64,000 nucleotides of DNA from Magallana gigas (Eukaryota), in NCBI RefSeq assembly GCF_963853765.1, contig NC_088861.1:21356281-21420280 (forward strand), in the 5' to 3' direction. The position numbers were made by a program, and so were the translations under genes. How positions within the stretch are numbered: the first letter of the stretch is position 1; each line of letters begins with the position of its first letter. The notes under the pieces were generated by a model that was not told where the DNA came from, did not search any database, and was given only the letters and a program-made list of their open reading frames with translations. Below, piece by piece: positions 1 to 61,955 of this stretch.

Positions 1-1860
1 ATCCTCAGGTAGTGTAGATTTTCGTTTGTTCAAATCATGGTCCCCAGGGGTAGGTTTGGGCCACAGTAGGGGGATCAAGTTTTACATAGGAATATATAGA
101 GAAAATCTGTAAACTTTCTTCTCAAAAACTATGTAAAACTTGACCCCCCCCCCTATTGTGGCCCATCCCTACCCCTGGGGACGATGATTTGAACAAACAT
201 GAAACTACACTTCCTGAGGATGCTTCCATTTTAATTTGAGCTTTCCTAACCTGATAATTTTTGAGAAAAAGATTTTAAAGATTTTCTCTATATATTCCTA
301 TGTAAAACTTGATCCCCCTACTGTGGCCCTACCTTACCCCCGGGGACCATGATTTGAACAAACTAGAATCTACACTACCTGAGGATTCTTCCATTTTAAT
401 TTGAGCTTTCCTGGCGTAATCGTTTTTGAGAAGAAAGTTTAAAGATTTTCTCAATATATTCCTATGTAAATCTTGACCCCCCCCCCCTATTGTGGCCCAA
501 CCTTACCCCCGGGGACGATGATTTGAACAAACATGAAACTACACTTCCTGAGGATGCTTCCATTTTAATTTGATCTTTCCTAACCTGATAATTTTTGAGA
601 AGAAGATTTTAAAAATTTTCTCTATATATTCCTATGTAAAACTTGATCCCTCTATTGTGACCCTACCCTATTCTTGGGAACCAAGATTTGAACAAACTTG
701 AAACTACACTTCCTGATGATGCTTTCATTTCAATTTGAGCTTTCCTCCGCTGGTACTTTTTGAGAAGAAGATTTTAAAGATTTTCTCGATATATTTTTAT
801 GTAAAACTTGATCCCCCTACTGTGGCCCAACCCTACCCCCGGGGACCATGATTTGAACAAACTAGAATCTACACTACCTGACGATAATTCCATTTTAATA
901 TGAGCTTTATTGACATGATACTTTTTGAGAAGAAGATTTTAAAGATGTTCTCTATATATTCCTATGTAAATTTTGATCCCCCTACTGTTGCCCTCCCTAA
1001 CCCCCGGGGACCATGATTTGAACAAACTTGAATCTACATTACCTGAGGATACTTCAATTTTAATTTGAGCTTTCCTGACGTAATCGTTTTTGAGAAGAAA
1101 GTTTAAAGATTTTTTCTATATATTCCTATGTAAATCTCCCCCCCCACCTATTATGGCCCAACCCTACCCCCGGGGACCATGATTTGAACAAACTTGAATA
1201 TACACCTCCTGAGGATGCTTCAATTTTAATTTGAGCTTTTCTATTTTAAAGATGTTCTCTATATATTCCTATGTAAAACTTGATCCCTCTATTGTGACCC
1301 TACCCTACCCCCGGGAACCAAGATTTGAACAAACTTAAAACTACACTTCCTGATGATGCTTCCAATTCAATTTGAGCTTTCCTCCCCGGATAATTTTTGA
1401 GAAGAAGATTTTAAAGATTTTCTCTATATATTCCTATGTAAAACTTGATTCCCCTACTGTGGCCCTACCCTACCCCCGGGGACCATGATTTTAACAAACT
1501 AGAATCTACACTACCTGAGGATACTTCCATTTTAATTTGAGCTTTCCTGGCATAATTGTTTTTGAGAAGAAAGTTTAAAGATTTTCTATATATATTCCTA
1601 TGTAAATCTTGCCCCCCCCCCTATTGTGGCCCAACCCTACCCCCGGGGACCATGATTTGAACAAACTTGATACTACACTTCCTGAGGATGCTTCCATTTT
1701 AATTTGAGCTTTCCTAACCTGATACTTTTTGAGAAGAAATTTTAAAGATTTTCTCTATATATTCCTATGTAAAACTTGATTCCTCTATTGTGACCCTACC
1801 CTACCCCCGGGAACCAAGATTTGAACAAACTGCACTGGACAAACCTCTAAGCTTTCTATC
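1..1860. repeat. Tandem satellite array, ~160-bp unit x about 11 (oyster Cg170/HindIII-like family); consensus roughly ttttgagaagaagattttaaagattttctctatatattcctatgtaaaacttgatccccc..ccctacccccggggaccatgatttgaacaaacttgaatctacactacctgaggatgcttccattttaatttgagctttcctgg
   Basis: Direct reading shows about 11 head-to-tail units with 80-90% identity. The same unit recurs at 4190-5160, 24840-25330, 26290-27640, 28380-29060, 41400-41990 and 63780-64000. Some units contain a HindIII site (aagctt). Confidence 0.85.
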
Positions 1861-3573
1861 AAAATGGATAATTTCATGACACTCGGGGAATGAAGGGGTT
1901 TTTACTGCAAGATGTGGCAAAAATACTGTGTTTTTTTGTATATAATGTTTAATAATCTTCTCAAGGTCTACTTACTAATAGAATCTGATTGCACATTTAG
2001 AAAGATGAAAGAATCTGTCAAATTTAAGTAACCAGGAAAGCCTTTTCAACCATTGAGCAAGAGTTCAGTCTTTAAAAAAAGGGGGAGGGGGTACTGAAAC
2101 GGTTAAAAGTGTTATCTTTCATTGCTTGTTTATGAAATAGGTAATTAATGTAAATTGTGTACTTAAGAAGTCCAATGATTAAAAGAGTTTTACATGTATT
2201 TTGTTATATAAAACATAACAAAACAGAAAGTTTTTGTAGATTTTATTAAAATATTTATAGAGAGAGTTGTGGATAGTAAGAAAACTAAAGCTTTGTTGGT
2301 AAAAAATTCCATAGAGTGGTGAATATTGAGTGCAGAAGTGTTGCATAGATATAGAATATCACTTTGTTATATTCTGCAAGATTTGTTTAACATGAGAATT
2401 GGTAGAGAAAAAAGTAAAATAAAACCTGTAGTGATAAGTTGCATGCAAGTGGTAAAGTGTCAAGTTGTTTGTTGTCCGATGCTTGACCAAGTGACATAAC
2501 CTGTTAGAATAGCCAGGTGATTAGATGAAAGTTCCTTGCCAGGTTGCAAGCAAAGACAGTTGACGCTAAAATAACCACCAGACAGGTGGAATATCTATAT
2601 ACCGGTATATATTAATTATATAAAATTTTTTAAAAAGTTTTTTCATTATTCGAAAGTGCACTTGCCAAGTGCCATTTCTACCCCTTTGTCACATTCCCAA
2701 TAAAATTTGGATGATTGCAAGATTTCAGGAAGGGGGGGGGGGGGTGGTCATTAACACATTTAAGATTTTTTTTACTCCAGAATGAAGCTTAATTAAATGC
2801 ATAAATATGAGATTCCTTGACAGGACTGTGTACGCGCTAAAGTACAATGTACTAATGTGATCCTTAAGGTCTGTTGGCCTCTTATTAAGCATGAAATCCA
2901 TGCATTTTTTAATAAAATAAATATGTTTGCTATTATTTGTTTGATTCTTAATTAGGACATGCTATTGTAAATTAACCTTATAAAACTAAGTCAACTTCCT
3001 TAAATAGTACAGAAGTACCATTTATTTAAATTAACTAAACAAGATAAGAGATGCATTTGACGAATGTTTTATTTATTTCAAAATTTATAAATCACAAAAA
3101 TATTCAAAATTTCGCAAGAAAATAAACTAGATAGTGGACGATATGAATGTGTGGAAAATATAACGTATATCTAACATGAAAATGTTTATCAAAATTCTAA
3201 TGAATTTATCAAGATATCAAAGATACAGAAATATTTTGACTATAAATGTAAAGTAAATAGTATTTTAAAATAATCTACAATATTACACTTAAATAATCTC
3301 TTACATATTTTATTTAAACGAGAATGTATAGAATAAATTATTCTGAAAATTATATTTCTTGGTTATGTAATTCAAATATACGTAATAATCTCACAATTGC
3401 AAATGGCAAAGTTGGTTAACTAATTAAAGATAGTGAAAAACATCAAGATACACTTACAAAAACACACTTGAAAGTTAATACTAAGAAATCATTATAATGT
3501 TTCATTCAACACTCTTACAAAACAAAATTGGTGTCAAAGAAACAAATTATTTTTGGATAACTCCTGGGAGAGT

Positions 3574-3681
3574 TTACTGATTTTGTCCTACAAGACCACT
3601 GGCTGTGTCAAACAGATTGACAGGGCTGTTGCCATCAGTGATCAGAACGCTCTCCAATCCAAGGGCTTTCAACATATTTAC
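3574..3681 (-). CDS. MVP: Major vault protein (MVP), terminal coding exon ending in a TAA stop; encodes [35 protein letters not shown]
   Basis: Minus-strand acceptor ttttttttag|GTAAATATG in phase 0. The translation aligns with the human MVP C-terminus ([32 protein letters not shown]) recalled from memory. The stop is the reverse complement of 3574-3576. Confidence 0.7.
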
Positions 3682-3851
3682 CTAAAAAAATAATTGTTAT
3701 TTCAAACACAATTTTGCAGAAGTGATTAACACACATTTCAGTTTATGTCTGTAATAAATGCTTTTCCATGATGAGTTTACATGAACAGCATTTGTAATGG
3801 GAGTCTGATTCTTTTTCAAGTTTACATGGTGTTTAAAATAATTATAAAAAC

Positions 3852-5282
3852 AAGAGGCCCAGGGGCCACATCGCTCACCTGAGCAACAATTGCCTTAATT
3901 CTAAATCAAATTAGCATTTCAGTATCAAAATATCTTGACAACTAAGTACAGTATATCTTACTAAAACAAATTGAAAATCTGCCAATTTTTTCCATCTCTT
4001 TTTTTTTTGGTAAATACCAAGCCCCTTTTGTTATTCTACCTGTAAGAAGATTTTTCTCTATTCCTATGTACCCCCCCCCCCTCCAAAATTTCGTGGCCCC
4101 ACTTTTCTCTCAGGAATCATGGTTTCATCAAACTTAAATCTGCATAACCTGTGCTTTCACACTAAGTACTGAGTTTTGGACCGAAAACTTTCCCAGAATA
4201 TTTTTAAAGATTTTCTCTATATATTCCTATGTAAAAGTTCAAACCGCCATCAAAGCCCTGCCCTATCATTAGGGACTGATTTTGCACACTTGAATTTACA
4301 CTACCCGAGGATGCCTCTACACAAGTTTAAGCTTTTCTGGCCAACTAGTCTTTAAAAAGAAGATTTTTAAAGATTTTCTCTATATATCTATGTAAAAATT
4401 CATCCCCCATTGTGGCCTTACTGTACCCCTGGACTGTTATTTAAACAAACTTGAATCTATACGATCTGGGGATGCTTCAACTCAAATGTGGGCTTTCATG
4501 GCCTAATAGAAGATTTTTAAAGATTTTCTCTATGTATAAAAACTATCCCCCATTGTGGCCCCGCCCTACCCCCAGGTACCATGATTTGAACAGACTTGAA
4601 TCTACATTATCTGAGGATGGTTACACGCCAATTTGAGCTTTCTTGTTTTTGAGAAAAAGATTTTTAAAGATTTCCTCTAAATATTCCTATGTAAAACTTG
4701 ATCCCCCAATTGTGTCCCCACGCTACCCCCGGTGACCATGATTGTAACAAACTTAAAACTACACTATCTGAGGATGCTTCCACTCAAATATAAGCTTTCC
4801 TGGCCTGATAGTTTTTGAGAAGAAGATTTTTAAAGATTTCCTCTATAAATTCCTATGTTAAACTTGATCCCCCCTATTGTGGCCCCACCCTACCCACAGA
4901 GACCATGATTTGAACAAACTTGAATCTACACTACCTGAAGATGCTTCCATTTTAATTTGAGCTTTCCTGGCCTAATAGTTTTTGAGAAGAAGATTTTTGA
5001 AAGATTTTCTCTATATATTCATATGTAAAACTTGACCCTCCCCTGTGGCCCCTCCCTACCCGCGGTGACCATGATTTGAACAAATTTGAATCTACACTAC
5101 CTGAGAATGCCTCAACACAAGTTTAAGCTTTTCAGGCCGAATAGTTTTTGAGAAGAAGATTTTTGAAAAATACCAACAAATTTTCAATAATTTTCCGTGG
5201 CCCTTCATTTAAATAAACTGGAATCCCCTTTACCTAGTGGTGCTTTGTGCCAAATTTGGTTGAAATTTGCCCAGCGGTTCTT

Positions 5283-5313
<31 letters not shown>

Positions 5314-5336
5314 ACGACGACGACAACGACAGACAT

Positions 5337-5373
<37 letters not shown>

Positions 5374-5395
5374 TGGCTCAGGTGACCTAATAATG
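3852..5395 (+). mobile_element. Composite non-autonomous element (Helentron/HINE-like satellite carrier): head 3852-4190, a 160-bp satellite array 4190-5160, and a tail 5160-5395 ending aagctcacttgagcctttggctcaggtgacctaa
   Basis: The same head-array-tail architecture recurs at 25955-27915. Head-only and tail-only copies occur elsewhere. The tail carries a 6-bp-stem hairpin, tgagcc-ttt-ggctca. Confidence 0.6.
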
Positions 5396-5507
5396 GCATT
5401 ACCTTAAATATATATACTTCTAATGTACAGTGTAATGTTGTTTAGCTTTAATGCTTCTTATGGTTCTGAAAACTCCAGAGAAATGAAAAAATTATAATCA
5501 TTTTTAC

Positions 5508-5588
5508 CTGATTTGCTGGACCTGCAGTTGCAATGGCAGCCAATACATTTCCTCCTATAGTTGAAATCATATCCTTAAACTTCTTTAC
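5508..5588 (-). CDS. MVP: MVP exon (81 nt, phase 0) encoding VKKFKDMISTIGGNVLAAIATAGPANQ
   Basis: Acceptor tttaatatag|GTAAAG and donor AATCAG|gtaaaa. It aligns with human [27 protein letters not shown]. Confidence 0.7.
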
Positions 5589-5807
5589 CTATATTAAATG
5601 AATTTGTTGTACCTTCGTTATTGTTTCATGACCATGGTTTAAAGGAATTAAGTTGTCACAAAATGTTATTTGGAATATACATAATAATTCCGTGTAATTG
5701 TTTTCTGCACTTTATTCCTCAAAACCTTCTAATACAATTGATTACAAATTGAAGATTGAAAAATATATGAAATTTATCTTGCTCTATTTTTACTTATTTA
5801 TTCAAAC

Positions 5808-5888
5808 CTCAATATTTGTCATTTCCCTTTCCTTATGAATTTCTAGTCTGTTCATATTTCTCGCATAATCTAGTTCTTGTTTTCGTAG
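5808..5888 (-). CDS. MVP: MVP exon (81 nt, phase 0) encoding LRKQELDYARNMNRLEIHKEREMTNIE
   Basis: Acceptor ttgttctacag|CTACGA and donor ATTGAG|gtttga. It aligns with human [27 protein letters not shown]. Confidence 0.65.
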
Positions 5889-7367
5889 CTGTAGAACAAA
5901 AAGGTTTAACACATAATTTTACAAAATAAAATAGTCAGAGATGTTAAAAATTATATTTGCATAATTCAAAAAGTCTTTCGAGAAAAAAGGCAAAAATAAA
6001 AAACTCATGACACAATTTGCCAATAAATAATTTAATTGAACTTAAGAACACCGTATAACAAATAAAGATATTGAAAACTCCAATTACATGTACATGCATT
6101 CTCTCTCACATTGTTTACTCAGGATTTGAGTGCCAAATTCCGATTGAAGTAAAGTTAAATATCATGAGCTAAATTTTTTTTAAACAACAGTATTCTTCAA
6201 ATGAAAATCTTTCGCCATAACATTTGATATCTTTATTATTCTATGGAATTAGACTTAAACAAAAATAATCGTTTGGTAAAACAGAGGAAATTTAAGTGAA
6301 GATTTTATCTGTTAGTCAATAGTCACATATAATGTTTAAATATTTTCTTTTGGTTTTATCTAGTACCATCTTTTGGATAATTGTGAGGCACATATTGCAT
6401 TTTCACCATTTCAATAAATGGATTTTTCTTTAGGAAAACCTGGTTAAAATGTTTAAAAACTTTGATCATTTACCTTGTATTAATTTCATGCCAGCAAAAT
6501 AAGGACAATATATTTAGTTCATGACTATGAATGTTTTAGTGTTATCATTATTCAGTTTTTGTTAAATTACCGGGTAAATCAAATGTTGGTGGAGTTCGCA
6601 AAATTGATAGAAAAAATTCCGACTGGGATATTTTTTAAAAATTGGTTCTCAAAACCTAACTATAATTCTTGGTATCTAATTAGCCACACTGCCCTTTATT
6701 AACAGTATTTCAATTTTAAAGAGTTAATTTGTATGTAATATTTTCACAATTAAGAAAACCTTAATCACATTGTAAAATTTTAAAGGATTCTTTTTCAATT
6801 ATCAAAAAAATATAATACAAAGGCCATTAACTCAAAAAGTTTTTAGAAGGTTAAAAATAACACTACAAATTTCTATAACATACAACATATGGTATTTCAT
6901 TTTCATCAGTGGGATTTTTTCGCATTCTGAGTAAACGTAATTCTTAAGTACGAAAATGCTATCATTTATTGTATATTTGAAGTTTAAATATTTTTTGACT
7001 AAATATAAGACAAAATATAGTCACTTTGTCTGCTTTTGTATACATGAATTTTTGTATTTTATTTGGTTAAATAAAGTGTACTTGGAAGGATAGTGCCCTC
7101 TGTTGAACTTGTACAAAATAATCTAAAATGCACATTTTTAGGCATTATAATTTTACGAAGTTTATACTGAACACTAAAAGTCTTTTAAGTCAAAAAATGA
7201 GGGGAACGCAATTTAGCTTCTTCTTACCATAGAGATGCGTCACACCAAATGGTAACAATTGGCCTTGTAGTTTTCAAGGAGAAGTTGAAAATGTATTATT
7301 AACGCACAACGCATGACGACGGACGAAGACCAATTGCTAAAATAACCAATTGCTTAAAAAAACGCAC

Positions 7368-7432
7368 CGCTTCCTGTGTGGTTAACTGAGCATTATGCTC
7401 TATTCCTGCTGCTTCTGCCCTCAGTTTTGCAG
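7368..7432 (-). CDS. MVP: MVP exon (65 nt) encoding (A)KLRAEAAGIEHNAQLTTQEA
   Basis: Acceptor ctttatgtcttttatag|CTGCAAAA. The proposed donor GAAGCG|gtgcgt is less certain; the ORF otherwise runs on to a stop. It aligns with human AKLKAQALAIETEAELQRVQK. Confidence 0.55.
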
Positions 7433-7638
7433 CTATAAAAGACATAAAGTCACACGATAGTAAAATGAAGTTTAAACCTTTACAATTTGATATCGATTTA
7501 AATGACAATACAATCATATCTTATTTATCCTATTTTATATGGTAAGAACCTAATAAGTTGTATGAACTTGCGTTCAAACCATTTGTAAGTGTATTAAAAC
7601 CATCATATTTTCTATGAATAAGCTTTGGATGAACTCAC

Positions 7639-7857
7639 CTTCAATCTCGCTCTCACACTCAATGATAATGCGCTCGGCCTGAGCTTGGGCCTCTGCTTTA
7701 GCCTGTCCAGAAGACTCCACTGCAGCAGTGACGGCTTGAAGTTCCAAGAGTTTACATCGTTCTTTTTCAGATTCTTTTTCATTATAGAGTTTTTGCCTCT
7801 CCAATTCACCCCTGGCTATTTGTTCATTTCTGGCTGCCTCATGCGATGCTGCTGCCT
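7639..7857 (-). CDS. MVP: MVP exon (219 nt) encoding [72 protein letters not shown]
   Basis: Acceptor aagttcaatag|AG GCA and donor GATTGAAG|gtgagt. The alignment to human [70 protein letters not shown] is strong. Confidence 0.75.
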
Positions 7858-8100
7858 CTATTGAACTTTAATATCAAAACATAATTGATGCTCTCTATTA
7901 TTTTCTTAATACATAAATCTCTTAATTTTTTTGTTGACACTTTTGTTACGTATATCCATTCCAAACCATAATCAGATATCATCAGTTATTTGCTTTACTG
8001 GGATATGCTAAATCAGTCATCAGCTTCAAATAAACATACGAAAGAAGTTCCTTATAATATTTATGCTGATAAAATACCATTTGGGAGAAATAGAATAAGT

Positions 8101-8448
8101 ATAGAAACAAGAGGCACAGTGGCCACATCGCTCATCTGAGCAACAGTATCTCTAACTCTGATCAAATTAGCATTACAGTCTCAAAATCAAAATATCTTGA
8201 CAAATAAGTACAGTAGATCTTGCTTGAGGGGGGGGGGGGGGGGGTGTCATGATTTTCAAAGCTTTGAATCGACCCGAGAATGCTTAATAAAAGTTTCAGC
8301 TCTCCTGGCAAAATGGGGTTTTTTTACAGACGATTTTAAAAAAATTCTCAAATTTTTCAATAATTCCTAATGATCTTCCCTTGATAAATGTTGTGGTCCT
8401 TTAATTTCACAATTTTGAATCCCCTTTGCCTAAGGATTCTTTGTGCTT

Positions 8449-8482
<34 letters not shown>

Positions 8483-8590
8483 TGTTGAAAATGTGAACAG
8501 TTTGTACAGACACATGGACGACAGACAAGTTTGATCAGAGAAGCTGATTCAGAGAAGCTGATTTGAGTTTTGGTCAAAGGGTCACAATTT
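8101..8590 (+). mobile_element. Short copy of the same composite element: head 8101-8220 and tail 8240-8590, with no satellite array
   Basis: The head is caagaggcacagtggccacatcgctcatctgagcaacag.... The tail contains ggttgaaattggcccagtggttctagagatgttgaaaatgtgaacagtttgtacagacacatggacgacagacaagtttgatcagagaagctga. A G18 tract sits at 8222-8245. Confidence 0.5.
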
Positions 8591-8899
8591 TTACATTTTA
8601 GAATCTTCCCTATACATATCAAAGGCCGGAACGGCCACAAAGGCGTCGAGCTGACGTTTTCTTTAATATAGATATCATAAATTTAAATTTCTGTACCAAT
8701 AGTCGTATATCAAAAAATATCAGAATAAAAATGTTTTGTGTAACTAATAAGTACCAGTTTTTAGTATAACGTGTATAATTATATGAAGAACTAGATCGTT
8801 CTCGTTGCGAGCAACGAGTGGGTCTTCTGTCCGATTTTTGAGTAAATGAGATAAAATCCTTCACTTTTAAGACTATATTGTTAATCAACTCAAAAAATT

Positions 8900-9447
8900 A
8901 GAAAAAAAAATTTTGGCACCCGAAGCTTGAGCCCGGATCGCCTAGGCACATGTCCACGACTCTAACGAATGAGCTATTCGGACTCTTGTTTCAGGACTTT
9001 GATGCTTAATATCTCGGGAACACATCAATTGATTTCAAAACAAATTACATATTCGGAATAAGTAAAAGAGTCTCTATCAACCCGTTAGAAAAATATATAA
9101 AAAGCAAAAAGTTGAAAAAATCGATTTTTTATCTTTCCTTCCGGTGACGACCGGAAGTGACGGTGGACGTTTTTATGACCATGTTGGAACAGGTAAAATT
9201 GATGTCTATCTTCACTGAAAATTTCAGCTCTATATCTTTATTCGTTTTTTGGATCTCTAGCTGACAAAATTGACTTTTAAAAATCGTAAACGGACGATAA
9301 CTTCCGACCGGAAGTGATTATCAAAAAATTGAAAAGGCGGTACAAACTTCAGATGCCGACACATCAACCCTTAAAATTTGAAGAAAATCAAATGAGCCAT
9401 CTTCGAGAAATTGCCTGCACAAAATTTGTAAGACAAAAAAAGAATGA

Positions 9448-9497
<50 letters not shown>

Positions 9498-12400
9498 TTT
9501 AGAAGAAAATATGACATCATCGGCTTTGATTTTCGACAACAAAACATGTTATGGAAAAAAGAGTGAAGTACTAAGGCTTTATTGTATCGCTGTTTATAAG
9601 TCTCTGACATAGCTTTTTTAAATATTTGCATTTCTTCCAATTAAGATAGAAAAGATTAAACTTGTTTACCCCTGGTCCCTAAAAACCTTAATTGGGTAAC
9701 GCAAGAGAAAATCATTATATTGTTAGGATATATAAACGTATTATACCAAATCTAGCTTTATTAACCTTTCATAAAATAGCTCTCATTAAAGGGCTATAGA
9801 TAGAAGATTTTAGAGCTCTTTGATCCCCTAATTTAAGGGGCCAGTCCCTTTTTCCTAATATCAAATGAAATGACATTTAATTCTAAACACATTTTGTCAA
9901 CAAGTGTTTAGAAACTCGTTACCGTTCTGGAGATATATGAGAAAGAAGGTTTTAGGGGCCGATCCCTTATCTCCTTATAGGGGCCGTTTGACGAAATGTT
10001 GAAGGTTGCATACTGTTAAGAACATCATTTTGAACAACTTTTCTTGTGTACTGCATTTCATAATATTTTTCCTTTCTGAGATCTAGGTGATCAAAATTTT
10101 GGACTTTTAGCCCCTAAAAACCCCTAATTACAAAACACATGATAAAATCATTACATTGCTTGAATACATAAATGTAAGATAAACACATTTGCTTCTATAA
10201 CCTTTCACAAAATATCTCTTGGTAAAGGACTACAAATTAAAGACTTTGGAGCCCGTTAGTCCCCTTATTTTAGGGGCCAGCCCCTTTTCCTTGATATCAA
10301 ATGAAAGGTCATTTAATTCTAAACAAATTTTGATCAACAAGTGTTTAGAAATTTGTTACCGTTCTAGAGATATATGAGAAAGAAGGTTTAAGGGGCCGAT
10401 CCCTTAACTCCTTATAGGGTCCGTTTGACGAAATTTTGAAGGTCGCATATTGTGAAGAACATAATTTTAAACAACTTTTCTTCTGTACTGCATTACAAAA
10501 TATTTTTCCTTTCTGAGATATGGGTGATCACAATTTTGGACTTTTGGCCCCTATAAACCCTTAATTACGTAACACATAATAAAATTATTACATTGCTTGG
10601 ATATATAACTGTGAGATAAACATATTTGCTTCTATAACATTTCACAAAATATCTCTCAGTAAACGGCTACAGATGAAAGACTTTTGGGCCCTTTTGTCCC
10701 CTAATTTGAGAATCCAGCCCCTTTTTCTTGATATCACATGAAAGGTCTTGTAAATATAAAAATTTTTTACAATACATGTTTTAACAAAATATTTTTCAGA
10801 AGAGAGATAAACAAAGAAAACCATGAAAAATTATGACTTTTTTTAGTCTCAATTTTCGGGACCAGACTAGCTTTAACGCCTTTTGAGCATGACAAATATG
10901 AATGCCAAATGGCACATCTACAATTTATTGTCTACAATCCCTGAAAGTTTGAACTCAGTATCTTTTACCGTTTAGGAGGAGGTCCCTGGACAAGCCGACC
11001 CTCTGAAAATCGCTAAAACGTCACTATCTTGAGAACGGAAATGACGTCATCAAAATAAAAAAATGTATATTAAGTTTAGATCAATATCAATTTGATCTGA
11101 AAGTTTCATGAAAATCGGCCGAGCCGTTTTTGAGATATCGCGGGCACAAAATTTGTAAGAAAAAAAAAGAAAAATAATAACTAGACTCTTGTTGCTATAG
11201 CAACAAAAAGGTCTTCCGTTCCTCATGTATAAATCTGTACAAAAGATCCATTTCTCTTGTAAACAGAAAATGGATATTATTTATACTAAAAAGGAATTCC
11301 CAAGAAATAAACAAAACAAAAAGACAAAACTTCATTTTGAGTACTTTCTGTGACGACCGGAAGTTACGCCGGATCATACAAAACATAGTAAACATATCTT
11401 CATACATTGCCTTGTATTTCCTCAAATTTTGGATGTTCAAGTTTTTGTTAGTTATAATATCTCGTTAAGAAATGGTTTTTGTCTCGGGACCGGAAAGGAA
11501 CGAACGGAAGTGATTAAGAAATTGAAAATACGTATTTTAGTACATTTACCTATGATAAGTTATTGTTCATCACATTGAGTAATATGCTAAAAAAAAATTC
11601 TAATTTAAAAAAAAAAACCCTTTTATTGCTTTTATTTTATCACTTCGAGTGAAAACCGGAAGTGACGTACGACCAAATGGAACCCGTTAAACACATGTTT
11701 GTTCAAATGTCCATTATCCATAAAAGTTTTCTGTCTTGATCTCTTAAAGTTTCTGAGATCTTGGGGTAGTTTGTTTTTTAAAAAGAAGGCTACCTGAGAT
11801 ATTTGAGATGTCTCAACGGAAGTAGAACTTTTTTGTTTTTTTTCACCATCTGTGGATGACCTCCTGTATTTTTATAACTAAAATGTTACTTCCATGCCAA
11901 ATAACCAACATATTTTTAAAAAATCAGAATTTGGTGTACTTTCTGTGACGACCGGAAGTTACGCCGGATGAAACAAAATAGTGTTAACACGTGTCCATAC
12001 ACAGGTCTATAATCCTACAAAGTTTGGTTGTTGAAGTCGTTACCGTTTTTGAGATCTCGTCGATATAAGGTTTTTTGTCTCGGGACAGGAAACGGACAAA
12101 CGGAAGTGCTTAATGAAATTTAATTTTTTTTTATCTTGTTACTTTCCTATTTTACATTATTATTCATCGAAGTAGCTAAAACTATCAAATAAAAACAGTT
12201 TTATGGATAAACAATTTGATTTGTTTGAACTCTTCCGCTGTGGACCAGAAGTGACGGAAGACAAAATGAAACTGTTTAAACACATCTCCAATCAAATGTC
12301 TATAAGTAGTGAAAGTTTCGTGTCTTAATCACGTACAGTACCTGAGAACTTGCGGGTACAAAATATGTTTTAAAAAAGCTTCCTGAGATAATCGAGATAT

Positions 12401-15400
12401 CTCACCGGAAGTAGATTTTTTTGGTTTATTTTACATTGTATAGATGACATATGAAAGGATCTATACTAATATCTTTATTCTATGGGAGATAAATTAAATA
12501 TGTAAAAACAAAAAAAATTGAAGTGCTTCCGGTGACGACCGGAAGTTACGCCGAACAAAACAAAAATGTTTAAACACATCTCCAACTATAGGTCTATCAT
12601 CCCAGAAAGTTTGGATGTTCAAGTGTTTACCGTTTCTGAGATCTCGTTGGTACAAGCTTTTTCAACGCGGGACAGGAAACGGACGACCGGAAACGATTTT
12701 TGACAAAATGAAAAAAACGCCTCGAGATATTGTCATTTTCTTCCATTCCAGAAAATTTCACATAAATCTATCCAGTCATCTCTGAGAAATCTTGTGGACA
12801 AAAACTGGGAAAAAAATAATAATAACTAGACTCTTGTTGCAAAAGCAACAAAAAGGTCTTCCGTTTTGATATACATGTATCAATTTAACTGTAAGACATT
12901 GCTTCTCTCACATAAAAAAAAGTGGATATGATAATTATTGTGAATGATATATCCAGACGTTACTTACATGTAAAACAACGAGAATGAAAAAAGAAATCAA
13001 TTTCTGAAGTACTTTCTGTGACGACCGGAAGTAACGCCGAACTAAACAAAAATGTTAACCATTTGTACAATCATATGTCAATCTTTCCTCAAAGTTTTGT
13101 TGTTCACGTCTTTGCCAAATCTAAGATCTCTTTGAAACAATATTTTTTGTCTCGGGACCGAAACGGACGAACGAAAGTGATTAATAAAAACAAAAGGTGG
13201 TATTTCTCGTACATTTGCTTAATGTACATCACTGTTTATCAGGCTAGATGAAATTCTAAGAAAGTCAGTTAAACTTGTTAAAAACAGGATTTGTTTGAAC
13301 CCTTCCGGTAAGAACCGGAAGTGACAGTTGACAAAATTAAACCCGTTAAACACATCCCCAATCAAAATTCTATCAATCATGAAAGATTCGTGTCTCAATC
13401 ACTTACAATGACGAAAATCTCGCGGACATCAAATTTGTAAAAAGGAAAGCTGCATAGAGATATTTGAGATATCTCACCGGAAGTAAAATTTATTTGCCAA
13501 TTTAACATTATATAGATGACATATGTGAGATTGTATACTGATATTTTCATTTTATGTAAAATGAATAAAACAAATTTTTGAAGTGCTTCCGGTGACGACC
13601 GGAAGTTACGCCGAACAAAACAAAATAGTGTATACACATGTACATACATAGGTCTATCATCCCACAAAGTTTAATTGTTCAAGTCGTTACCGTTTTTGAG
13701 ATCTCTAGAAATCAAGGTTTTTTGTCTCGGGACAGGAAACGGACAAACGGAAGTGCTCAATGTAAATTGTATTTAATATGTTTTTGTACTTGCCCTTTTT
13801 ACTTAATTTTTCATCGACTTCACTACAAATATCAAAGGAAAACAGTTAAACTGATAAACAGCTTTATTTGTTTGAACTCTTCCTGTGTGGACCGGAAGTA
13901 ACGGAAGACAAAACGAAGTCGGTTAAACACATCCTCAATCAAATGTCTATCATCTATGAAAATTTTGTGCTTTGATCACTTATAGTTTCTGAGATCTCGT
14001 TTGTACAAAATGTGTTTCAAAACAGCTACCTGAGATATTTGAGATATCTCACCGGAAGTAGAATTTTTTCGTTGAGTTAACATCACATAGAGAACCTATG
14101 CATAGATTTATACTTATGTATTTATTTTATGGAAAAGGAATTTTAAGCGAAAAAGTAGTTATTTTTGAAGTGCATCCGGTGACGACCGGAAGTTACGACG
14201 AACAAAACAAAATAGTGTGAACACATCTACAACTATAGGTCTATCATCCCACAAAGTTTGGATGTTCAAGTCTTTACCGTTTCTGAGATCTCGTTGATAC
14301 AAGTTTTTTCAACGCGGGACAGGAAACGGACAAAACGAAAGTGCTCAATCTCAGTTGTATTCAATATTTCTTGTATACTTACCCTTTGTACTTCATTTCT
14401 CATCCAGCAAACTACGAATATCAATGGAAAAGATTTAAACTGATAAACAGTTCGATTTGTTTGAACTCTTTCTGTGTGGACCGGAAGTGACGGAAGACAA
14501 AACGAAACCGGTTAAACACATCTTCAATCAAATGTCTATCATCCCTGAAAGTTTTGTGCTTTGATCACTTATAGTTTCTGAGATCTCGTTTGTACAAAAT
14601 GTGTTTCAAAACAGCTACCTGAGATATTTGAGATATCTCACCGGAAGTAGAATTTTTTGGTTGAGTTAACATTGCATAGATAACCTATGCATAGATTTAT
14701 TCTTATATATTTTTTTTTATGGAAAAGGAATTTTATGCGAAAAAGTAGTTATTTTTGAAGTGCTTCCGGTGCCGACCGGAAGTTACGACGAACAAAACAA
14801 AATAGTTTAAACACATCTACAGCTATGGGTCTATCATCCCACAAAGTTTTGATGTTCAAGTCTTTACCGTTTCTGAGATCTCGTTGATACAAGCTTTTTT
14901 AATGCGGGACAGGAAACGGACGACCGGAAATGATTTTTGACAAAATGAAAAAATCATCTCGAGATATTGTCATTCTCTTTCATTTTAGAAAATTTCACAT
15001 TAATCTATCCAGCCATCTCTAAGAAATCTCCTGGACAAAATCTTGGAAAAAAAAAAAATAATAATAACTAGAGCAAAGCTCGTTGCAAAGCAACGAGTGG
15101 GTCTTCCGTTAATGTCGGAAGTAAAGCTGGAAGTTCCTGTTAGAAGCAGAGCTCTTAAACCAATAACAAGAGTAACTAAAATAAAAAGACGAAAAAAATC
15201 GAATTATTCCTGGTACGACTTAACAAAATCCGAATGATTTTAAGTACGACTTAACAAAAACCTTTCTGATTTCAAGAACGACTTAACAAAAAAATCCGAA
15301 TGTGTCCAAGTACGACTTAACAATTATTTTTGGTACGAGTTAATATTACTTTGAACATTACGCTATTTTTTAAACCAAGGACGCGGAATAAAAATTTCCG

Positions 15401-15770
15401 GAAAAATCAATTTTTAAACCCCGATATCTCTGTAATGCATCGTCCGATTTTAAAACAGCTTTCAGTGTTAGATTCAGCTAAATAAGCTCTACAAAACACA
15501 TATACATTTTTGATTGAATCAGAAAATTCATTTTTTCGAAAAATTTGTTTTACTTCCGGTTTCGACCGGAAGTGATAGATTTTCATTTCGAGCCTTATTA
15601 CAGAGGTAAATCGATCAAATCATAACCATTCAAAATTTCAAGCCTCTATCTTAAAGCGTTTTTGAGAAAAGTCCGATTTGAGGGACGCACACTTGCAAAA
15701 ATCTCTGAAAATTTCATCAAAATCGGTTAAAAACCTTTTGAGTTATGAGGCAAAAAAGGAGTCAGAAGAA
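8900..15770. repeat. Complex hairpin-rich tandem repeat array of ~300-bp related subunits, organised as ~600-bp higher-order repeats from about 12520 to 15060. It carries recurrent palindromes cttccggtgacgaccggaagt and ctcgttgcgagcaacgag...ggtcttccg
   Basis: More than 20 occurrences of the core ccggaagt or acttccgg, for example at 9140, 9300, 11350, 11655, 11950, 12530, 13020, 13310, 13590, 13885, 14180, 14470, 14770 and 15555. Higher-order units starting at about 13560, 14160 and 14760 are about 90% identical. Confidence 0.75.
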
Positions 15771-15779
15771 AAGAAAAAG

Positions 15780-15869
15780 AATAATAATAATAATAAAAAG
15801 AAACAATAGAATAACAAGAGTGTCTTCCGTTGGAAACGGAAGACCCTAATAAAAAACATTACAATCACT

Positions 15870-15907
<38 letters not shown>

Positions 15908-15922
15908 AACATTACAATCTCT

Positions 15923-15974
<52 letters not shown>

Positions 15975-16100
15975 GTACGAAAACAATAAGGTCTTCCGTT
16001 GGAAAACGGAAGACCTTAATAATAAAGAAGAAAAGTGAAAAAGAAACAATAGAATAATAGTAGGGTCTTCCGCTGAAGACGAAAGACCCTAAAAACATAT
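15780..16100. repeat. Minisatellite of ~57-60 bp x 5, each unit holding a perfect 13-bp-stem hairpin aaggtcttccgtt-ggaa-aacggaagacctt
   Basis: Units lie at about 15810, 15870, 15930, 15985 and a diverged unit at 16055. The spacers between units are identical, so this is not a CRISPR array. Confidence 0.8.
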
Positions 16101-19280: not shown

Positions 19281-20735
19281 ATGGATAAGAGTCAATGCAA
19301 AAAAGATACTGATCGAATGATTTCTTCCCAAAAAGACGTCAAAACCGGTGAATGGAAGGATGACATTCGTGAGTGGCCACAAGTAGAATATGGCGATATC
19401 TACAATTATTTGATTTTAAGTAGAGCATGTGACGGCGAAAAAATGAAAAATTACAAATCATTGGACAGTTACAATTATTTTAAAAGCGGTTCTGTCGGGA
19501 AAATTCTTCATTTTGTTATTCACAATACAGTTATTCTGAAATCTGAAGTGCGCCCGTCACAAAAAATAAATTCAGAGTTTCACAATGCATGGGTATTCTG
19601 TGATATGATCGGCACAATTCTAAACGGGGGATGTTCATGTATGGCTGGGAACAGTAAAACGTGCAGTCATGTAGGCGCACTTTTGTGGAAAATTGAGCAT
19701 GCTGTAAGGTTAGGTTTTACGGGAAAATCTTGTACAGATGAGCAGATGCAGTGGAATAGGGGTGCGACAAGAAACCTTGAACCAGGTGTTCTTGAAGAGA
19801 TGGACTTTAAAAAACCTAAATATGGCAGTGAGGTTAACAACAATACTGAAAAACCACAAAATACAAAATCTATCTTCCCAATGTTTGTATCACATCAATC
19901 TTTTAAATATTTTGTGGAAAACTCAGAACTTAAAGAATTATTTCTTTTAGAAAATTCACTTTTAAGTAAATCTATGCACGCAAATATAAACAAATCTCTT
20001 TTCGAATCTTCATCCGAGCCTCGTACTGAGCATACAGGTGAACTATCTTGTGAAAAGTGTTGTGCGTTTTATAACAGGTACATGTACATTAAACTTAATG
20101 ATGCCCAAATTCAATCGTTATCGATGGCAACAATTTCACAAAGTGAATCTGAATTGTGGCACAACAGTAGAAAAATAAGAATAACTGGCAGTAGTGCTCA
20201 CAAGGTTCCCGTTCGTGACACTACAAATAGTGATAACTTCTTAAGAGAACATATGTACCCTTCCTTCACATCAAACAAATTTACTAGACATGGACAAGAA
20301 GGTGAAGAGCCCTGGCTAAGTGTTTCCCCAGATGGAATAGTAACCAATGCTGATGGTTCAAAATGTCTTTTGGAAATTAAATGTCCAATACTTAAGAATG
20401 ATCAAACACTTGACAGCTTATTTACAATTGGTAAATATGATGTTGTGAAATCCTTGCAAAATGGTACATTATATGTTAAGCATAACAGTTCAAGGGGCTA
20501 TTACCTTCAAATGCAGTTAACTTTGCATGTAACACATATGCAGCTGTGCAAACTTGTTATTTGGACAACTAATGAATACAAGGTCATTGATGTACAATAT
20601 GACCAACAGTTTTGTGAAGCAGCTATTTCAAGACTATGTTGTTTTTACTTCAACAAACTTTTACCAAGAGTAGTTGATGACTTTGAATGTGGCAGATTTA
20701 AAATTAGTAAAAAATATGTTAAATTTTCTAACTGA
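19281..20735 (+). CDS. Intronless 484-aa ORF with a SWIM-type zinc finger (GGCSCMAGNSKTCSHVGALLWKIEH, CxCx(n)CxH) and a C-terminal YqaJ-like viral-recombinase / PD-(D/E)XK exonuclease domain (RITGSSAHKV ... VSPDGIV ... LLEIKCP)
   Basis: The full-length ORF is given in the supplied track. Domain calls rest on recalled family motifs. The ORF lies antisense inside an MVP intron and has no predicted introns, so it is probably transposon-derived or domesticated. Confidence 0.6.
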   Translation: MDKSQCKKDTDRMISSQKDVKTGEWKDDIREWPQVEYGDIYNYLILSRACDGEKMKNYKSLDSYNYFKSGSVGKILHFVIHNTVILKSEVRPSQKINSEFHNAWVFCDMIGTILNGGCSCMAGNSKTCSHVGALLWKIEHAVRLGFTGKSCTDEQMQWNRGATRNLEPGVLEEMDFKKPKYGSEVNNNTEKPQNTKSIFPMFVSHQSFKYFVENSELKELFLLENSLLSKSMHANINKSLFESSSEPRTEHTGELSCEKCCAFYNRYMYIKLNDAQIQSLSMATISQSESELWHNSRKIRITGSSAHKVPVRDTTNSDNFLREHMYPSFTSNKFTRHGQEGEEPWLSVSPDGIVTNADGSKCLLEIKCPILKNDQTLDSLFTIGKYDVVKSLQNGTLYVKHNSSRGYYLQMQLTLHVTHMQLCKLVIWTTNEYKVIDVQYDQQFCEAAISRLCCFYFNKLLPRVVDDFECGRFKISKKYVKFSN

Positions 20736-23404: not shown

Positions 23405-23505
23405 TTAGTGGATATCTCTATTGCCAGTTGCACAGATTTACTGAGGCTGTCTCTCATCTTGGCATCCACTGGTTCTATACTCTGAATGTCCATGCTGCTT
23501 AAAAT
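23405..23505 (-). CDS. MVP: MVP exon encoding [34 protein letters not shown]
   Basis: Acceptor tcttattctcag|ATTTTAAGC in phase 0. It aligns with human [38 protein letters not shown]. The 3' boundary is uncertain: the only canonical GT donor (ACTAA|gtatgt) leaves a phase that does not fit the acceptor of the exon at 7857. Confidence 0.55.
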
Positions 23506-48171: not shown

Positions 48172-49781
48172 TGTGCTTTTGTGCAATCATTTTAGAATTA
48201 TAAGAGTTCTATTTGTATGAATTTAATTCATTTATTTTAGATCCATGGTTTTAATAACGATTTCAACACAATGACTATAAGTTTGTAAAGTTCACGATGT
48301 AATAAGATTTTTCGTTAAAATTTCGACACTATTTCACATCAATAAAGTTGTGTTTATTCTAAATGCTTGCAAAAAGTTACCGGCATTATCTCATTCATCT
48401 TTTTAATCAGGTTTTTTTGTACATACATGTATGTGTACCCGGTAAATAATTTCTTATTGCAAGTTAATACTTTGTGAAATTCCCGCATTTATAGAGTTGC
48501 TGAATTGTTCCCCGGATCCACGCACCGATAGTCTTGCGTGTAGTGTTTGTGTACATATCTACAGACAATTTTTTTGTTTGTTAGAGATTAGGAAAAATCA
48601 TTGAACTAACAAAGTATAAGTAAGATAAATTCAGACCATACACACGACGGGTTGTGATGAGTTACCAATCAGGTGTTCGCGGAAAGGTGTGAATAACGGC
48701 ATCTCGAGTACACCTGTTCAGACGTCCAAATGTACACACAGATAGTTGTAAATTCCAATGACACCTAACAAGACAGACAATAACACCTGTTGTGTATAGA
48801 ACCCAAGATGAAAGACAATGCTGTGTATCTGATCAGCTTCCGTACATCGCACGAGTGATTTTTTCATGTGAAATCACGAGGCCATTACCAGCAATACGGA
48901 AATAAAATTGAAAATTATTTTATGAAATGCGGGTATATTTTTAATAAATGTACAATGCTTGAATATAATTTAACAAGTCTAGAGTTTGTACATGTATTTA
49001 TTTATAATCTATAATATAAAAGTGATTTTTTTGTTTATTTATTGCTACATAAATAAATAGCTGACGTCCAAGTTATTCGAGTCACCCGTAATATGGGGTT
49101 GTTATTTACTACAGCACATCAACAGCACATGTTTTTAGAAAAACATGATCTGAAATGTTTTCATTTCTCATTTTTAATTGGTTTAAAGTAAGGCTGTAAA
49201 TTAATTGATAAATCAGAAAGTGTTTACAGATAACAGAAATAAGACGTTTAAGCTCCCGACATTTTAATAGGATCGTCAGTTACAACATCACGTGTGTTTA
49301 GAAAAAAAAACAAGATGAATTCAATTGATTTGAATTTTGATCATATATTAATTGATTATTAAATATTTTTGGTTAATTTATTTCAATTTATTTAAGAACA
49401 AATGAATTAAAAGGTACCCATTTACGTCGAGTTTTCAGATCACAAAAAATTAACTTCACGTTGACAGCCCGGACAATTTTCTGGGTCCGTGCAACATAAG
49501 TCGACATTCTTTTGTTTTTAAATATGAAAAGGATATATATGTTTCAACCCTTGTTTAGCCATAATTTCTTTATTTCTAAACATACTCTATTTCTATCAAC
49601 GTCTCAGGTAACGATATCCACGGAGTAACACAGTGGCCACGGAGTTACACAGGCGAACACGGTGCAACACGGGGCTTTTTCTTGAATTGTCCAATACACA
49701 TACACTGTGTCACACCGTGTGCACGGTGCGACACAGACCGTTTTCCACCGTGTTTTCTACACGTAGGGTGTCGGGATACTC

Positions 49782-50219
49782 GTGAGCTGTACTGTACATT
49801 GTTGTTCCGTTTACGAGAAACGAACTGAATCATTTAGATCGCAGCTTGAATCCGAACCTGATCCTCTGCTGCGTACAACCAAGAAACCTCATAATAGAGT
49901 TTCTGCACAAACAGTCAGTAACTGGATAAAATCTGTTATGTTAGATGCAGGTATCGATACATCAAGATTTCAAGCGCATTCGTGCCGGATGGTCTCTTCA
50001 AGCAAAGCGCATAATACTGGAATACCTTTAGAAGAAATTCTATCAAAAGCAGACTGGTCAAATGCGCGAACATTGAAAACATTTTATTTGCGCAATACTC
50101 CATCTGATATATCTTATACACGTAATGTTTTGAATATGGTGAGTTTGGTAATTTTCGGCTTTAAACATGCATTATTATATCTCACGGATATATTTGAAAT
50201 ATATTTGAAGATTTTGTGA
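49782..50219 (+). pseudogene. C-terminal fragment of the tyrosine recombinase of DIRS-like element 2
   Basis: PHNRVSAQTVSNWIKSVMLDAGIDTSRFQAHSCRMVSSSKAHNTGIPLEEILSKADWSNARTLKTFYLRN is homologous to the YR C-terminus of element 1 (HSTR...Y). Confidence 0.65.
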
Positions 50220-52411
50220 GGGCGCGAAGCGCCCGAAATGAAATATAAATTATATGATAATATTGTAGTGAGATATAATAATGTACTTCCCTCCCACCCT
50301 TGCCCGATTATTTGCTAAGGAGGGTGGTACTGATTTATTGTTTATGTATAAATATTACATTTCACATTACAGTTGGGTTAATTTGTGTCGTATGTGTTGT
50401 AGGAGGATAACTCTGTACCAACAAACGCCACGACGCTCAGTTGAGACAGTCTACAGTTAACTGTGGTTCTACGGCAACAAGAGTGACAGATGAAAAACGA
50501 TCATAGTGAATTGCTAAACATTCCTGACTAAGCAATTTGATGAGAATAATTAATATTTTTTAGATATTATATAAATTCTGTCAAAATTACATTTTGAAGT
50601 TTTCTTTTTATGGCTCGCATTGAAAGTCATTGATTCTATCTATCGAATGGTTAGGGTTTACCTGGGGCATGCGCATCGGGTTTCATTAACCTGAGTGATT
50701 TTTATCTATTTATAGGTAGTCACACTTTAAAGAGCTGTATTTTTATTCTTGAATTGAAGGTCAATGCATTATTATATCTCACTACAATATTATCATAAAT
50801 TTTATATTTCATTTCGGGCGCTTTGCGCCCTCACAAAATCTTCAACTTTAATTATTTGGATTTACCATATAAGTTTCCCAGGCAATGATACTCATTTTTA
50901 ACAGTTTCTAAAAGTAGAAACTACAGCTGCTTTTTGTTACTTTTCTTGAACAAGAGGCCCATGGGACACATCAATCACCTTAGCAGACAATGGCGTACAA
51001 AGGATATTATGTCATATTGCCCCTCGGTAGAAAAAAAAAGATTACAATAAAATGAACTGTATTCAAATTTTACACTTATTTTCCTACACTTAATCTTTGA
51101 CATTGTACCCTTATGAAATACAATTTTTACCAAAAATAAGATCCTATGCAAGATATAAAACTAAATTTTTGGTATGGGTACACTGTTAACTCCAATTCCC
51201 TTTATTTTAGTTCTGCCCCCTCACTTTATAAAATGATCAAATTATATAAGAGAATATGCATATATGTAGGTACATATTTATCTTCAACTACATTGTACTA
51301 GCTAGTTATTGTATTTTATTAAAAAAAAATTCCTACATGTGAAAGTAGAAAATCTCATGGCACTTGAATTAAGAACATTCAAAAATTTGATTGGTCTTCT
51401 GCTTTATAAACGATTGTTGTTTACCAGGCTTGAACTTGTGCGACGTTATATAACCTTGCTCACTTGATCCATGAATACACTTGAAAGAAAAATGTTATCA
51501 TGTGATATGTTAAAGGACTATTACATGTATAGTCAATGCATAGGCGTCGGAACTGGGTTAAGCAAATTCATCTTTGTCAGTTTGACCCGTTTGTCATGTG
51601 TCAACATTCAAACATTCCATTTATTATTTAAAGTCCTGGATACCTTGGAAGATCACTGTTAAACATATTATAAAAATTGTAATATCATATTCAGTGATAC
51701 TGTTGGTAAATCACCGGTATTATGATTGGGAAAACCATTGTGTTTGTAATTAAGTTAAATATATGTAGTACATGTAATTGAATTTCGTCAACGTGTGTGT
51801 GTATGTTGTGTTGTGAATGTGTTTTCTAGGTTTCAAATTTCTTATATCATATAAAAGCATATACAAGCACGAATCCAAGTCTTCGATCGTTATTTCTTTA
51901 CGACCCTGTGACAAATGTACTGTAGTAACAGAATTATGGATTGATGTTGAAGAATAGATTTTGAGACAGTTTGATTTATTAATAACATTTGATAAACAAT
52001 TTGTTCTTTTTAGAAAATATAAAAATAGGGAAATTTATAAAAAAAAATTTTAACTTGGTAATTCTTATTGTGAAGCAATATATTTTTTCTTGTAAATATA
52101 AAAGTAACACTAATCCAAATATACATGAATTAAAAACTGTTATATTATAGAAAGGCTTTTGACCGAAAAATATATGCTAATGAAAAATTGTAGATATAAG
52201 GAATATGAAATCTATAGTGAAAATAAGCTTTAGTGCTGTAGTATAAAAGGATAAATTGTTTCTTTATATAATTGTGTTTTTTCTATTTTGTTTAGAACTG
52301 CAATGGGTTTTTTTAATTTCTTTATCCGCTTTCAAGTATCCATGTAAAACAGGGTCCTATCCCGTGAATATGGTTTAAATATTATATACATATGTAAACA
52401 ATGCCCCTACC

Positions 52412-61917: not shown

Positions 61918-61955
<38 letters not shown>

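Follow-up and report, generated by a model that had tools for sequence, protein, structure and literature searches.

Cg170/HindIII satellite arrays as the cargo of very probable non-autonomous Helentrons in introns of the Magallana gigas major vault protein gene

How do arrays of one satellite repeat come to lie between the same two conserved ends at several places within the introns of a single gene? The question is raised by a stretch of 64,000 nucleotides of Magallana gigas (NCBI RefSeq assembly GCF_963853765.1, contig NC_088861.1, positions 21,356,281 to 21,420,280 of the forward strand; hereafter the window), in which the original prediction, made from the sequence alone, recognised elements built of a conserved head, a satellite array and a conserved tail, and took them for Helentron-type non-autonomous carriers of Cg170-like satellite DNA. 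The present analysis agrees with it on both points. Two complete copies, together with fragments, can be assigned with high confidence to the non-autonomous Helentron elements (HINEs), namely to Cg_HINE group 1, the type of Repbase Helitron-N2_CGi, carrying satellite of the Cg170/HindIII family as central tandem repeats; the assignment draws on matches to published sequence boxes, on the HINE substructures and on monomer identity. Elements of this type have already been described, Cg170/HindIII repeats on Helitron- or Helentron-type carriers having been published for Crassostrea gigas and five further oysters. The locus is a clean textbook case and not a discovery: a rolling-circle-type transposon scattering a satellite cargo through gene introns, with array length changing after copying.

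Eleven non-autonomous Helentron elements of C. gigas have been named Cg_HINE (Vojvoda Zeljko et al., 2020; PMC7492417). Their left flank (LF) consists of a 5′ subterminal inverted repeat (subTIR), a complementary inverted repeat (IR) 1-12 nt away and a short GTCY-type microsatellite, and is followed by satellite-like repeats of 140-180 bp and a right flank (RF) with a 3′ subTIR and a palindrome; their insertion sites are T-rich (TT) and show no target-site duplication. Table S3 of Tunjic-Cvitanic et al. (2021; PMC8268682) gives the conserved boxes of Repbase Helitron-N2_CGi/N2C_CGi, and these boxes were aligned to the window by BLAST.

A 34-nt motif of the head occurs six times with at most three mismatches, on the plus strand only (3851, 8108, 23908, 25955, 61923 and 63505), and a 29-nt motif of the tail has two exact occurrences (5357 and 27881), the chance expectation being 0 for either motif. 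Read on the plus strand, 3600-5700 and 25250-28050 share one layout of a left block starting CAAGAGGCCCAGGGGCCACATCGCTCACCTGAGC, tandem units and a right block ending AAGCTCACTTGAGCCTTTGGCTCAGGTGA. Both full copies that had been predicted thus exist, with their limits refined to those given in Table 1 (copy 1 and copy 2). When the two are compared with each other (3851-5395 against 25955-27917), similarity begins just 5 bp outside the left block, and because the flanks are unrelated, the copies are separate insertions and not a duplicated segment. The other whole or partial copies were mapped by BLAST of the head, the tail and one monomer against the window, and all have the same orientation.

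The box matches identify the two ends. Box 1, the element start, is matched at 42 of 44 positions (95.5%) at 27870-27913 and at 37 of 38 (97%) at 5348-5385, with weaker matches at the two tandem 5′ ends of a composite element described below. Box 2, the element end, is present in five copies at 38/39 (97.4%), beginning at 3850, 25954, 61922, 63504 and, over 36 nt, 23907. Box 3, which lies between microsatellite and repeats, matches over its full 156 nt at 27680-27837 with 88% identity and at four other sites with 84-88%. All these matches fall on the minus strand, and their order is the published one; it follows that Box 1 and the microsatellite mark what had been called the tail as the 5′ end (LF) and that Box 2 marks the head as the 3′ end (RF), which reverses the polarity first proposed. 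The canonical orientation is also placed on the minus strand because the microsatellite reads GACG/GACA on the plus strand.

Along the minus strand the full set of HINE substructures listed in PMC7492417 was found in the correct order. Each complete copy begins with a T-run, continues with a 12-13-bp subTIR that pairs with the adjacent IR into a 13-14-bp hairpin, and then passes through the (GTCY)n microsatellite and the Box 3 of about 156 bp to 6-9 monomers of about 166 bp; about 340 bp of non-repeated sequence follow, of which the array-proximal 150 bp or so are a decayed monomer, and the copy closes with the second subTIR, a GGCCC-NN-GGGCC palindrome and CTCTTG, after which comes T. In copy 2 this reads from the start TT-AG-CTCACCTGAGCC-AAA-GGCTCAAGTGAGC, then (GTCY)n, Box 3 and 8.5 monomers, and at the end GTTGCTCAGGTGAGCGATGTGGCCCCTGGGCCTCTTG, then TT.

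In copy 2 all 12 bp of the subTIR pair, GCTCACCTGAGC and GCTCAGGTGAGC, match, and copy 1 shows a single mismatch; this length lies within the 12-15 bp characteristic of HINEs, and the distance of the subTIR from the terminus is 3-8 nt at the 5′ end, depending on the T-run, and 22 nt at the 3′ end. Both hairpins named in the original prediction exist, and they differ in stability. TGAGCC-TTT-GGCTCA is the tip of the 5′ subTIR/IR hairpin, which has a 13-14-bp stem and a 3-nt loop and a predicted free energy (dG) of -10 to -12.7 kcal/mol (z -2.4 to -4.7; copy 1, -10 kcal/mol and z -2.4; copy 2, -12.7 kcal/mol and z -4.6), and (GTCY)n-type runs begin 20-30 nt beyond it, as in other HINEs. GCTCA-CC-TGAGC, on the other hand, is a short self-palindromic subTIR with a 4-5-bp stem whose predicted stability does not exceed that of shuffled sequences. 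The 3′ hairpin that was expected to precede the terminus sits in the head as GGCCCAGGGGCC, 5 nt before CTCTTG. This palindrome, GGCCC-NN-GGGCC, is conserved in 13 termini and corresponds to the 3′ palindrome of HINEs; a role for the 3′ structure, which would be putative, is supported by its sequence conservation, not by energy.

The insertion site was read from 13 distinct 3′ termini, taken from the window and five metagenome contigs, and from five distinct 5′ ends. CCTCTTG closes all 13 of the 3′ termini; the next base is T in 12 of them, and TT comes next in 11. Each of the five 5′ ends has T(2-7) and then AG, and similarity stops at both kinds of terminus. No direct repeats that could represent a target-site duplication flank copies 1 and 2. 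Helitron-style insertion sites had been proposed as a check, and the flanks of these copies fit the T/TT preference and variable T-run described for Helentrons and HINEs; a canonical A/T site does not agree with the T after 12 of the 13 3′ termini.

The head and the tail had been expected to belong together elsewhere as well, and to match no other transposon class. Five public metagenome contigs matched in a scan for the 3′ end, and a scan of viral contigs for the same end gave no match. One of the five, L006 (mirrored by L005), holds at 3376-4428 a complete element with both ends, which are of Helentron/HINE type: a T-run, Box 1, the microsatellite, five tandem Box 3-like copies (3457-3962), Box 2 at 39/39 and then TTT. 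Its central repeats are Box 3-like units instead of Cg170-type monomers, making it a relative in which Box 3 itself has been amplified.

The cargo can be followed monomer by monomer. The arrays at 4195-5164 and 26304-27666 have a period of 165-167 bp by Tandem Repeats Finder (TRF), so the variable-length arrays stood as predicted and their unit is about 166 bp, not 160 bp; the published clusters CL1/CL2 of the Cg170/HindIII family have monomers of about 166-167 bp. Compared with three example C. gigas CL1 monomers (PMC7492417, Table S1), the monomers of the window show a mean identity of 77-79% and up to 87%, exceeding the 70% clustering threshold of that study, and all share the orientation of the element flanks; a monomer variant containing CCATTTTAATTTGAGCTTTCC is absent from the portion of the CL1 table compared. 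Between copy 1, copy 2 and the truncated copy starting at 63505, monomers of equal rank in the array are 92-96% identical (the first monomer of the truncated copy is 93.6% identical to the first monomers of copies 1 and 2), as against 73-87% within one array. These monomers are orthologues by position, which means that the element ends and the array were duplicated together, as one block, and that the array was not built in place. Copy 2 has about 2.5 additional monomers in mid-array relative to copy 1, implying that array length probably changed after the block had been copied. Box 3 aligns collinearly with the monomer (score 35; shuffles 15.9 +/- 2.4), and the array is for this reason bordered by a decayed monomer. 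The locus in this way shows in miniature several of the steps that have been proposed to lead from transposon to satellite, namely Box 3 as a decayed monomer, a relative with an amplified Box 3, copies with two 5′ or, it seems, two 3′ ends, and an array of ten monomers without element ends.

The elements have no coding capacity of their own, as no open reading frame (ORF) of at least 90 aa lies within the element copies. A full-text search of papers with the subTIR, IR and monomer strings returned chance primer matches only, and the monomer strings were not found in the supplement of PMC8268682. Several points weigh against the HINE assignment and keep it short of certainty. The family match to Helitron-N2_CGi rests on its published boxes; no Rep/helicase ORF was seen among the large ORFs of the window, which holds no autonomous Helentron; the 3′ palindrome has a stem of only 4-5 bp and a predicted stability no better than that of shuffles (z about -0.3 to -0.7); and the TT target and the missing duplication were read from the flanks of a few copies.

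Three other explanations were considered. A non-autonomous canonical Helitron (Helitron1 type) would run from 5′-TC to CTRR-3′, carry one 3′ hairpin and insert between A and T, and it is very improbable here: the 5′ end is T(n)AGCTCACC and not TC, the 3′ end is CTCTTG (...CCTCTTG) and not CTRR, and the T after 12 of the 13 3′ termini, taken with the T-run at the 5′ end, points to a T/T rather than an A/T site. Moreover, canonical Helitrons lack the subterminal inverted repeats found here at both ends, and to set against this there are the Repbase classification of these elements as "DNA/Helitron", the short palindrome close to one terminus and the absence of a target-site duplication. The latter absence, observed at both complete copies, speaks in turn against a miniature inverted-repeat transposable element (MITE) moved by a cut-and-paste transposase, which was the first description given to similar repeat-carrying elements of bivalves. 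Short, non-coding elements with inverted repeats near both ends and internal tandem repeats would suit a MITE; the repeats, however, are subterminal, lying 3-8 nt inward of the 5′ end and 22 nt inward of the 3′ end, and apart from them the ends are asymmetric and bear no relation to each other, so that we regard a MITE as highly unlikely.

It could also be asked whether a mobile element is needed at all, given that many copies in a single orientation lie inside 64 kb, as might be produced by local segmental or tandem duplication of a satellite array with conserved junctions. We attach hardly any probability to such an origin: the copies stop resembling each other a few bases from the termini and have unrelated flanks, unique host exons stand between them, and the same ends have been published as genome-wide element ends in C. 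gigas and recur in unrelated metagenome contigs. The assignment to non-autonomous Helentrons is the reading adopted in what follows.

The copies display the architecture described, sharp termini at T, no duplication flanking either complete copy, no coding capacity and arrays copied blockwise. By analogy with what is known of Helitrons and Helentrons, the Rep/helicase(/endonuclease) protein of an autonomous Helentron would mobilise such copies in trans, which we infer only, because the window holds no autonomous Helentron. The trans-acting protein would recognise both ends, nick one strand at the 5′ end and unwind toward the 3′ signal, and rolling-circle ("peel-and-paste") copying would be followed by reinsertion into a TT site. 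Array length would drift afterwards through gain and loss of monomers, and read-through or nested events could give rise to copies with two 3′ or two 5′ ends.

Among known systems, Cg_HINE_1 and Cg_HINE_2 (Helitron-N2_CGi, N2d and N2C) are nearest, with boxes 88-97% identical to those of the window and the same order of subTIR/IR, (GTCY)n, Box 3, Cg170-type monomers of about 166 bp, subTIR and palindrome; variable monomer number, frequent truncated copies and intronic location are shared as well, and there is no structural difference. The same design of conserved ends around Cg170/HindIII repeats is described in PMC11136912 for CvA (also CvE and CvG) of Crassostrea virginica and for Helitron-type elements found in C. 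angulata, C. hongkongensis, C. ariakensis and Ostrea edulis, and in these oysters arrays are reported as element-associated, one-sided or standalone. The HINE/DINE-1 elements of mites, mosquitoes and Drosophila (Thomas et al., 2014; PMC4067079) resemble the present ones in their 12-15-bp subTIRs a few bases from the 5′ terminus, adjacent IR, microsatellite, optional central repeats, 3′ palindrome, variable terminal T-run and, judging from the flanks here, TT target. They differ from them in that the nucleotide sequences are unrelated and the 3′ subTIR lies about 38-60 nt from the terminus in the mite families, as compared with 22 nt here. DTC84 of the clam Donax trunculus (PMC3879986) is by description likewise a non-autonomous bivalve element with a central satellite-like array, but is described there as a MITE.

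Table 1. Coordinates of the probable HINE copies, their parts and related features in the window (positions are those of the window).
Feature	Position	Strand	Basis or remark
Complete HINE copy 1 (about 1.54 kb)	3851-5390	-	MVP intron between exons 3586-3681 and 5496-5621; flanks not common to other copies
Copy 1, 3′ end (RF, Box 2)	3850-3888	-	Box 2 38/39
Copy 1, 3′ subTIR GCTCAGGTGAGC	3873-3884	-	Motif coordinates
Copy 1, palindrome	3856-3867	-	Motif coordinates
Copy 1, terminus ...CCTCTTG	ends 3851	-	Then T-run 3846-3850
Copy 1, array of 6 monomers of about 166 bp, Cg170/HindIII-CL1 family	4195-5164	-	TRF, monomer map, CL1 comparison, position-wise orthology
Copy 1, degenerate monomer with poly-C tract	about 4047-4194	-	Monomer map
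Copy 1, Box 3, diverged monomer homologue	5196-5310	-	87.8% over 115 nt
Copy 1, (GTCY)n-type microsatellite	5316-5339	-	GACG/GACA on plus strand; motif class as in PMC7492417
Copy 1, 5′ end (LF, Box 1)	5348-5390	-	Box 1 97% over 38 nt
Copy 1, parts of 5′ end: IR; 5′ subTIR; AG and terminal TT	5359-5370; 5376-5387; 5388-5390	-	Motif coordinates
Complete HINE copy 2 (about 1.96 kb)	25955-27914	-	BLAST boxes, TRF, motif coordinates
Copy 2, Box 2; array (about 8.5 monomers); Box 3	25954-25992; 26304-27666; 27680-27837	-	
Copy 2, microsatellite; Box 1	27843-27870; 27870-27913	-	
Copy 2, perfect 12-bp subTIR pair	25977-25988 and 27900-27911	-	
Third full-type copy, 3′ part, cut by window end	63505-64000	-	Box 2 at 63504-63542
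Composite element (1.8 kb)	23908-25720	-	BLAST boxes, TRF
Composite, unit U with Box 2-type 3′ end, split by 468-bp insert	23908-24105 + 24574-24610	-	
Composite, decayed monomers; Box 3	24800-25360; 25414-25522	-	
Composite, two tandem 5′ ends (Box 1), microsatellite in each	25577-25619 and 25674-25716	-	
Second unit U (236 bp), ending in Box 2 (61922-61960)	61923-62020 + 63365-63504	-	Adjoins 3′ end of the 63505 copy; split by unrelated transposon 62021-63364
Short derivative without array	8108-8545	-	Box 2 8107-8145; poly-G/C tract; Box 3 8393-8503; microsatellite 8509-8526; without 5′ subTIR/IR hairpin
Short derivative	43422-44178	-	Diverged 3′ end 43422-43460; unrelated filler; about half a monomer 43866-43953; without 5′ subTIR
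Same derivative, Box 3; microsatellite; IR half of Box 1	43976-44109; 44117-44146; 44159-44178	-	
Array of about 10 Cg170-like monomers, no element ends within window	129-1831	-	BLAST, TRF
Fragment: decayed monomers and array-proximal end of Box 3 (29090-29118)	28396-29124	-	
Fragment: decayed monomers and part of Box 3 (42040-42067)	41424-42068	-	
Solo diverged Box 2-type 3′ end	50951-50994	-	
Same-orientation element ends	3850, 8107, 8800, 9450, 15089, 23907, 25954, 38698, 43422, 50950, 58088, 60283, 61922, 63504	-	
Box 5 matches	8800-8827, 9450-9491, 15089-15109	-	
Five tandem Box 4 hairpins (five-fold 5′ hairpin)	15797-16072	-	
Long-period internal repeats of second Helentron group	9673-10768 (437 bp); 11165-15110 (about 590 bp)	-	

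Several of the incomplete copies listed in the original prediction as head-only or tail-only had to be redescribed. Both short derivatives retain both sides; the "head-only" piece at 23908 and the "tail-only" piece at 25330-25730 are two ends of a single 1.8-kb composite; and 61923 is the end of a 236-bp unit, here called unit U, next to which a third full-type copy starts at 63505. Within the composite, at 25531-25720, the 5′ end is tandemly duplicated as a 97-bp unit present twice (TRF), each with a microsatellite and a Box 1 hairpin, giving one element with two 5′ ends. Unit U has a Box 2-type 3′ terminus of its own and at both of its loci directly adjoins the 3′ terminus of another HINE, which suggests elements with two 3′ ends; either read-through or nested insertion at one and the same junction could have produced them. 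The 1.34-kb insert that splits the second unit U at 62021-63364 has terminal inverted repeats of about 20 bp (CGTATTTTCCCGACGA...) and GTAC on both sides, and is probably a cut-and-paste DNA transposon. At 1-129 one Cg170-type monomer in the opposite orientation adjoins the array without element ends, forming a head-to-head junction outside the coding region of the major vault protein (MVP) gene.

The host of these insertions was recognised by means of a human MVP probe sequence, with which eight exons were located on the minus strand (3586-3681, 5496-5621, 5805-5897, 7362-7442, 7577-7867, 23407-23505, 28222-28311 and 42337-42390). Joined end to end, these exons give a match to major vault protein chains of the PDB that spans residues 557-850 (E = 4e-74). 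In a homologue search no identical host exon came up, the exon fragments reaching at most 88%, and exons for the part before residue 556 did not turn up in the window. Because these exons interleave with the elements, the latter lie in introns of the MVP gene at least to 42.4 kb, among them repeat-filled introns of 14-15 kb, and about 31% of the window is Helentron-derived when all families are taken together.

The sense strand of MVP is the minus strand, and on it lie all matches to Boxes 1-5 of at least 20 nt, all 3′ termini and all GTCY runs that are not inside a retrotransposon ORF. Counted as insertions, 11-14 elements of at least four families (Box 1/2 type, Box 4/5 type, 171-bp-repeat and 161-bp-repeat) share one orientation and none inside the gene has the opposite one, a tally in which the families other than Box 1/2 (8800-16072, 60283-61615, 58088-59215 and 38698-39175) include elements noted by eye. 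The two-sided binomial probability is about 0.001 to 0.0001 for 11-14 insertions, for a pattern that was noticed post hoc. Orientation is not uniform everywhere, as Box 2 and Box 4 are in opposite orientations on metagenome contig L003.

Two candidate causes were tried and rejected: polyadenylation and splice signals, which might have been asymmetric, are symmetric in number between the element strands, and the availability of T-run targets on the sense strand in non-repeat DNA gives a T-run/A-run ratio of 0.95-1.08. The uniform orientation may be a local accident or a hint of strand-specific integration or retention, and we consider it rather unlikely, though worth stating, that Helentron-derived elements are inserted or retained strand-specifically relative to host transcription (or to fork direction). 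Such a bias would agree with insertion of the transferred strand into DNA that is briefly single-stranded, for example the non-template strand of a gene under transcription or one of the template strands at a fork. Integration into single-stranded DNA is known for bacterial HUH transposases. A literature search for a sense-orientation bias of HINEs or Helitrons in introns found no report, and the bias, if genome-wide, would be of wider interest and would bear on how Helentrons integrate.

The remaining families of the tally have a similar construction. A second Helentron group, with boxes 4 and 5 of the C. gigas Helitron-N3/N4/N28 type, occupies about 8800-16072 of the minus strand. At 60283-61615 lies a HINE-like family with 171-bp repeats, whose GAGAAGAAGATTTT and GGCCCCACCCTA motifs are common to Cg170-type monomers, and at 58088-59215 and 38698-39175 one with 161-bp repeats, which has a 5′ hairpin GTCCCCCGC...GCGGGGAC and then (GTCC)n; both families terminate in CTCTTG and then T.

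Other repeats and genes share the window with the Helentron-derived elements. Three DIRS-like tyrosine-recombinase retrotransposons, with reverse transcriptase (RT), Dam-like and phage-integrase domains, are located at 30290-34238 (minus), 44514-50791 (plus) and 53366-56876 (plus), the second of them bounded by 173-bp inverted repeats (44514-44686 and 50619-50791; 95%); for the DIRS-like RT the best named relatives come from C. gigas (68%) and Saccostrea cucullata (73%). Beside the first of them a 158-bp direct repeat with 98% identity (34648-34805 and 37101-37258), its two units 2.4 kb apart, may represent the terminal repeats of another element. An intact ORF of 484 aa on the plus strand (19281-20735) encodes a YqaJ-like recombinase domain (YqaJ/SWIM) and has its closest relative, at 93%, in the SRR25336277 assembly and its nearest named one, at 46%, in Mytilus. 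An exact look-up of this ORF gave no record, and homologue searches with it, with the joined MVP exons and with the DIRS-like RT yielded no named protein that is nearly identical. Finally, 57315-57736 is a G+C-rich tandem repeat of 43-bp units (GCCCGCTGGGATCAGCCCCGGGTCATGC...) with a higher-order period of 130 bp at 95% identity.

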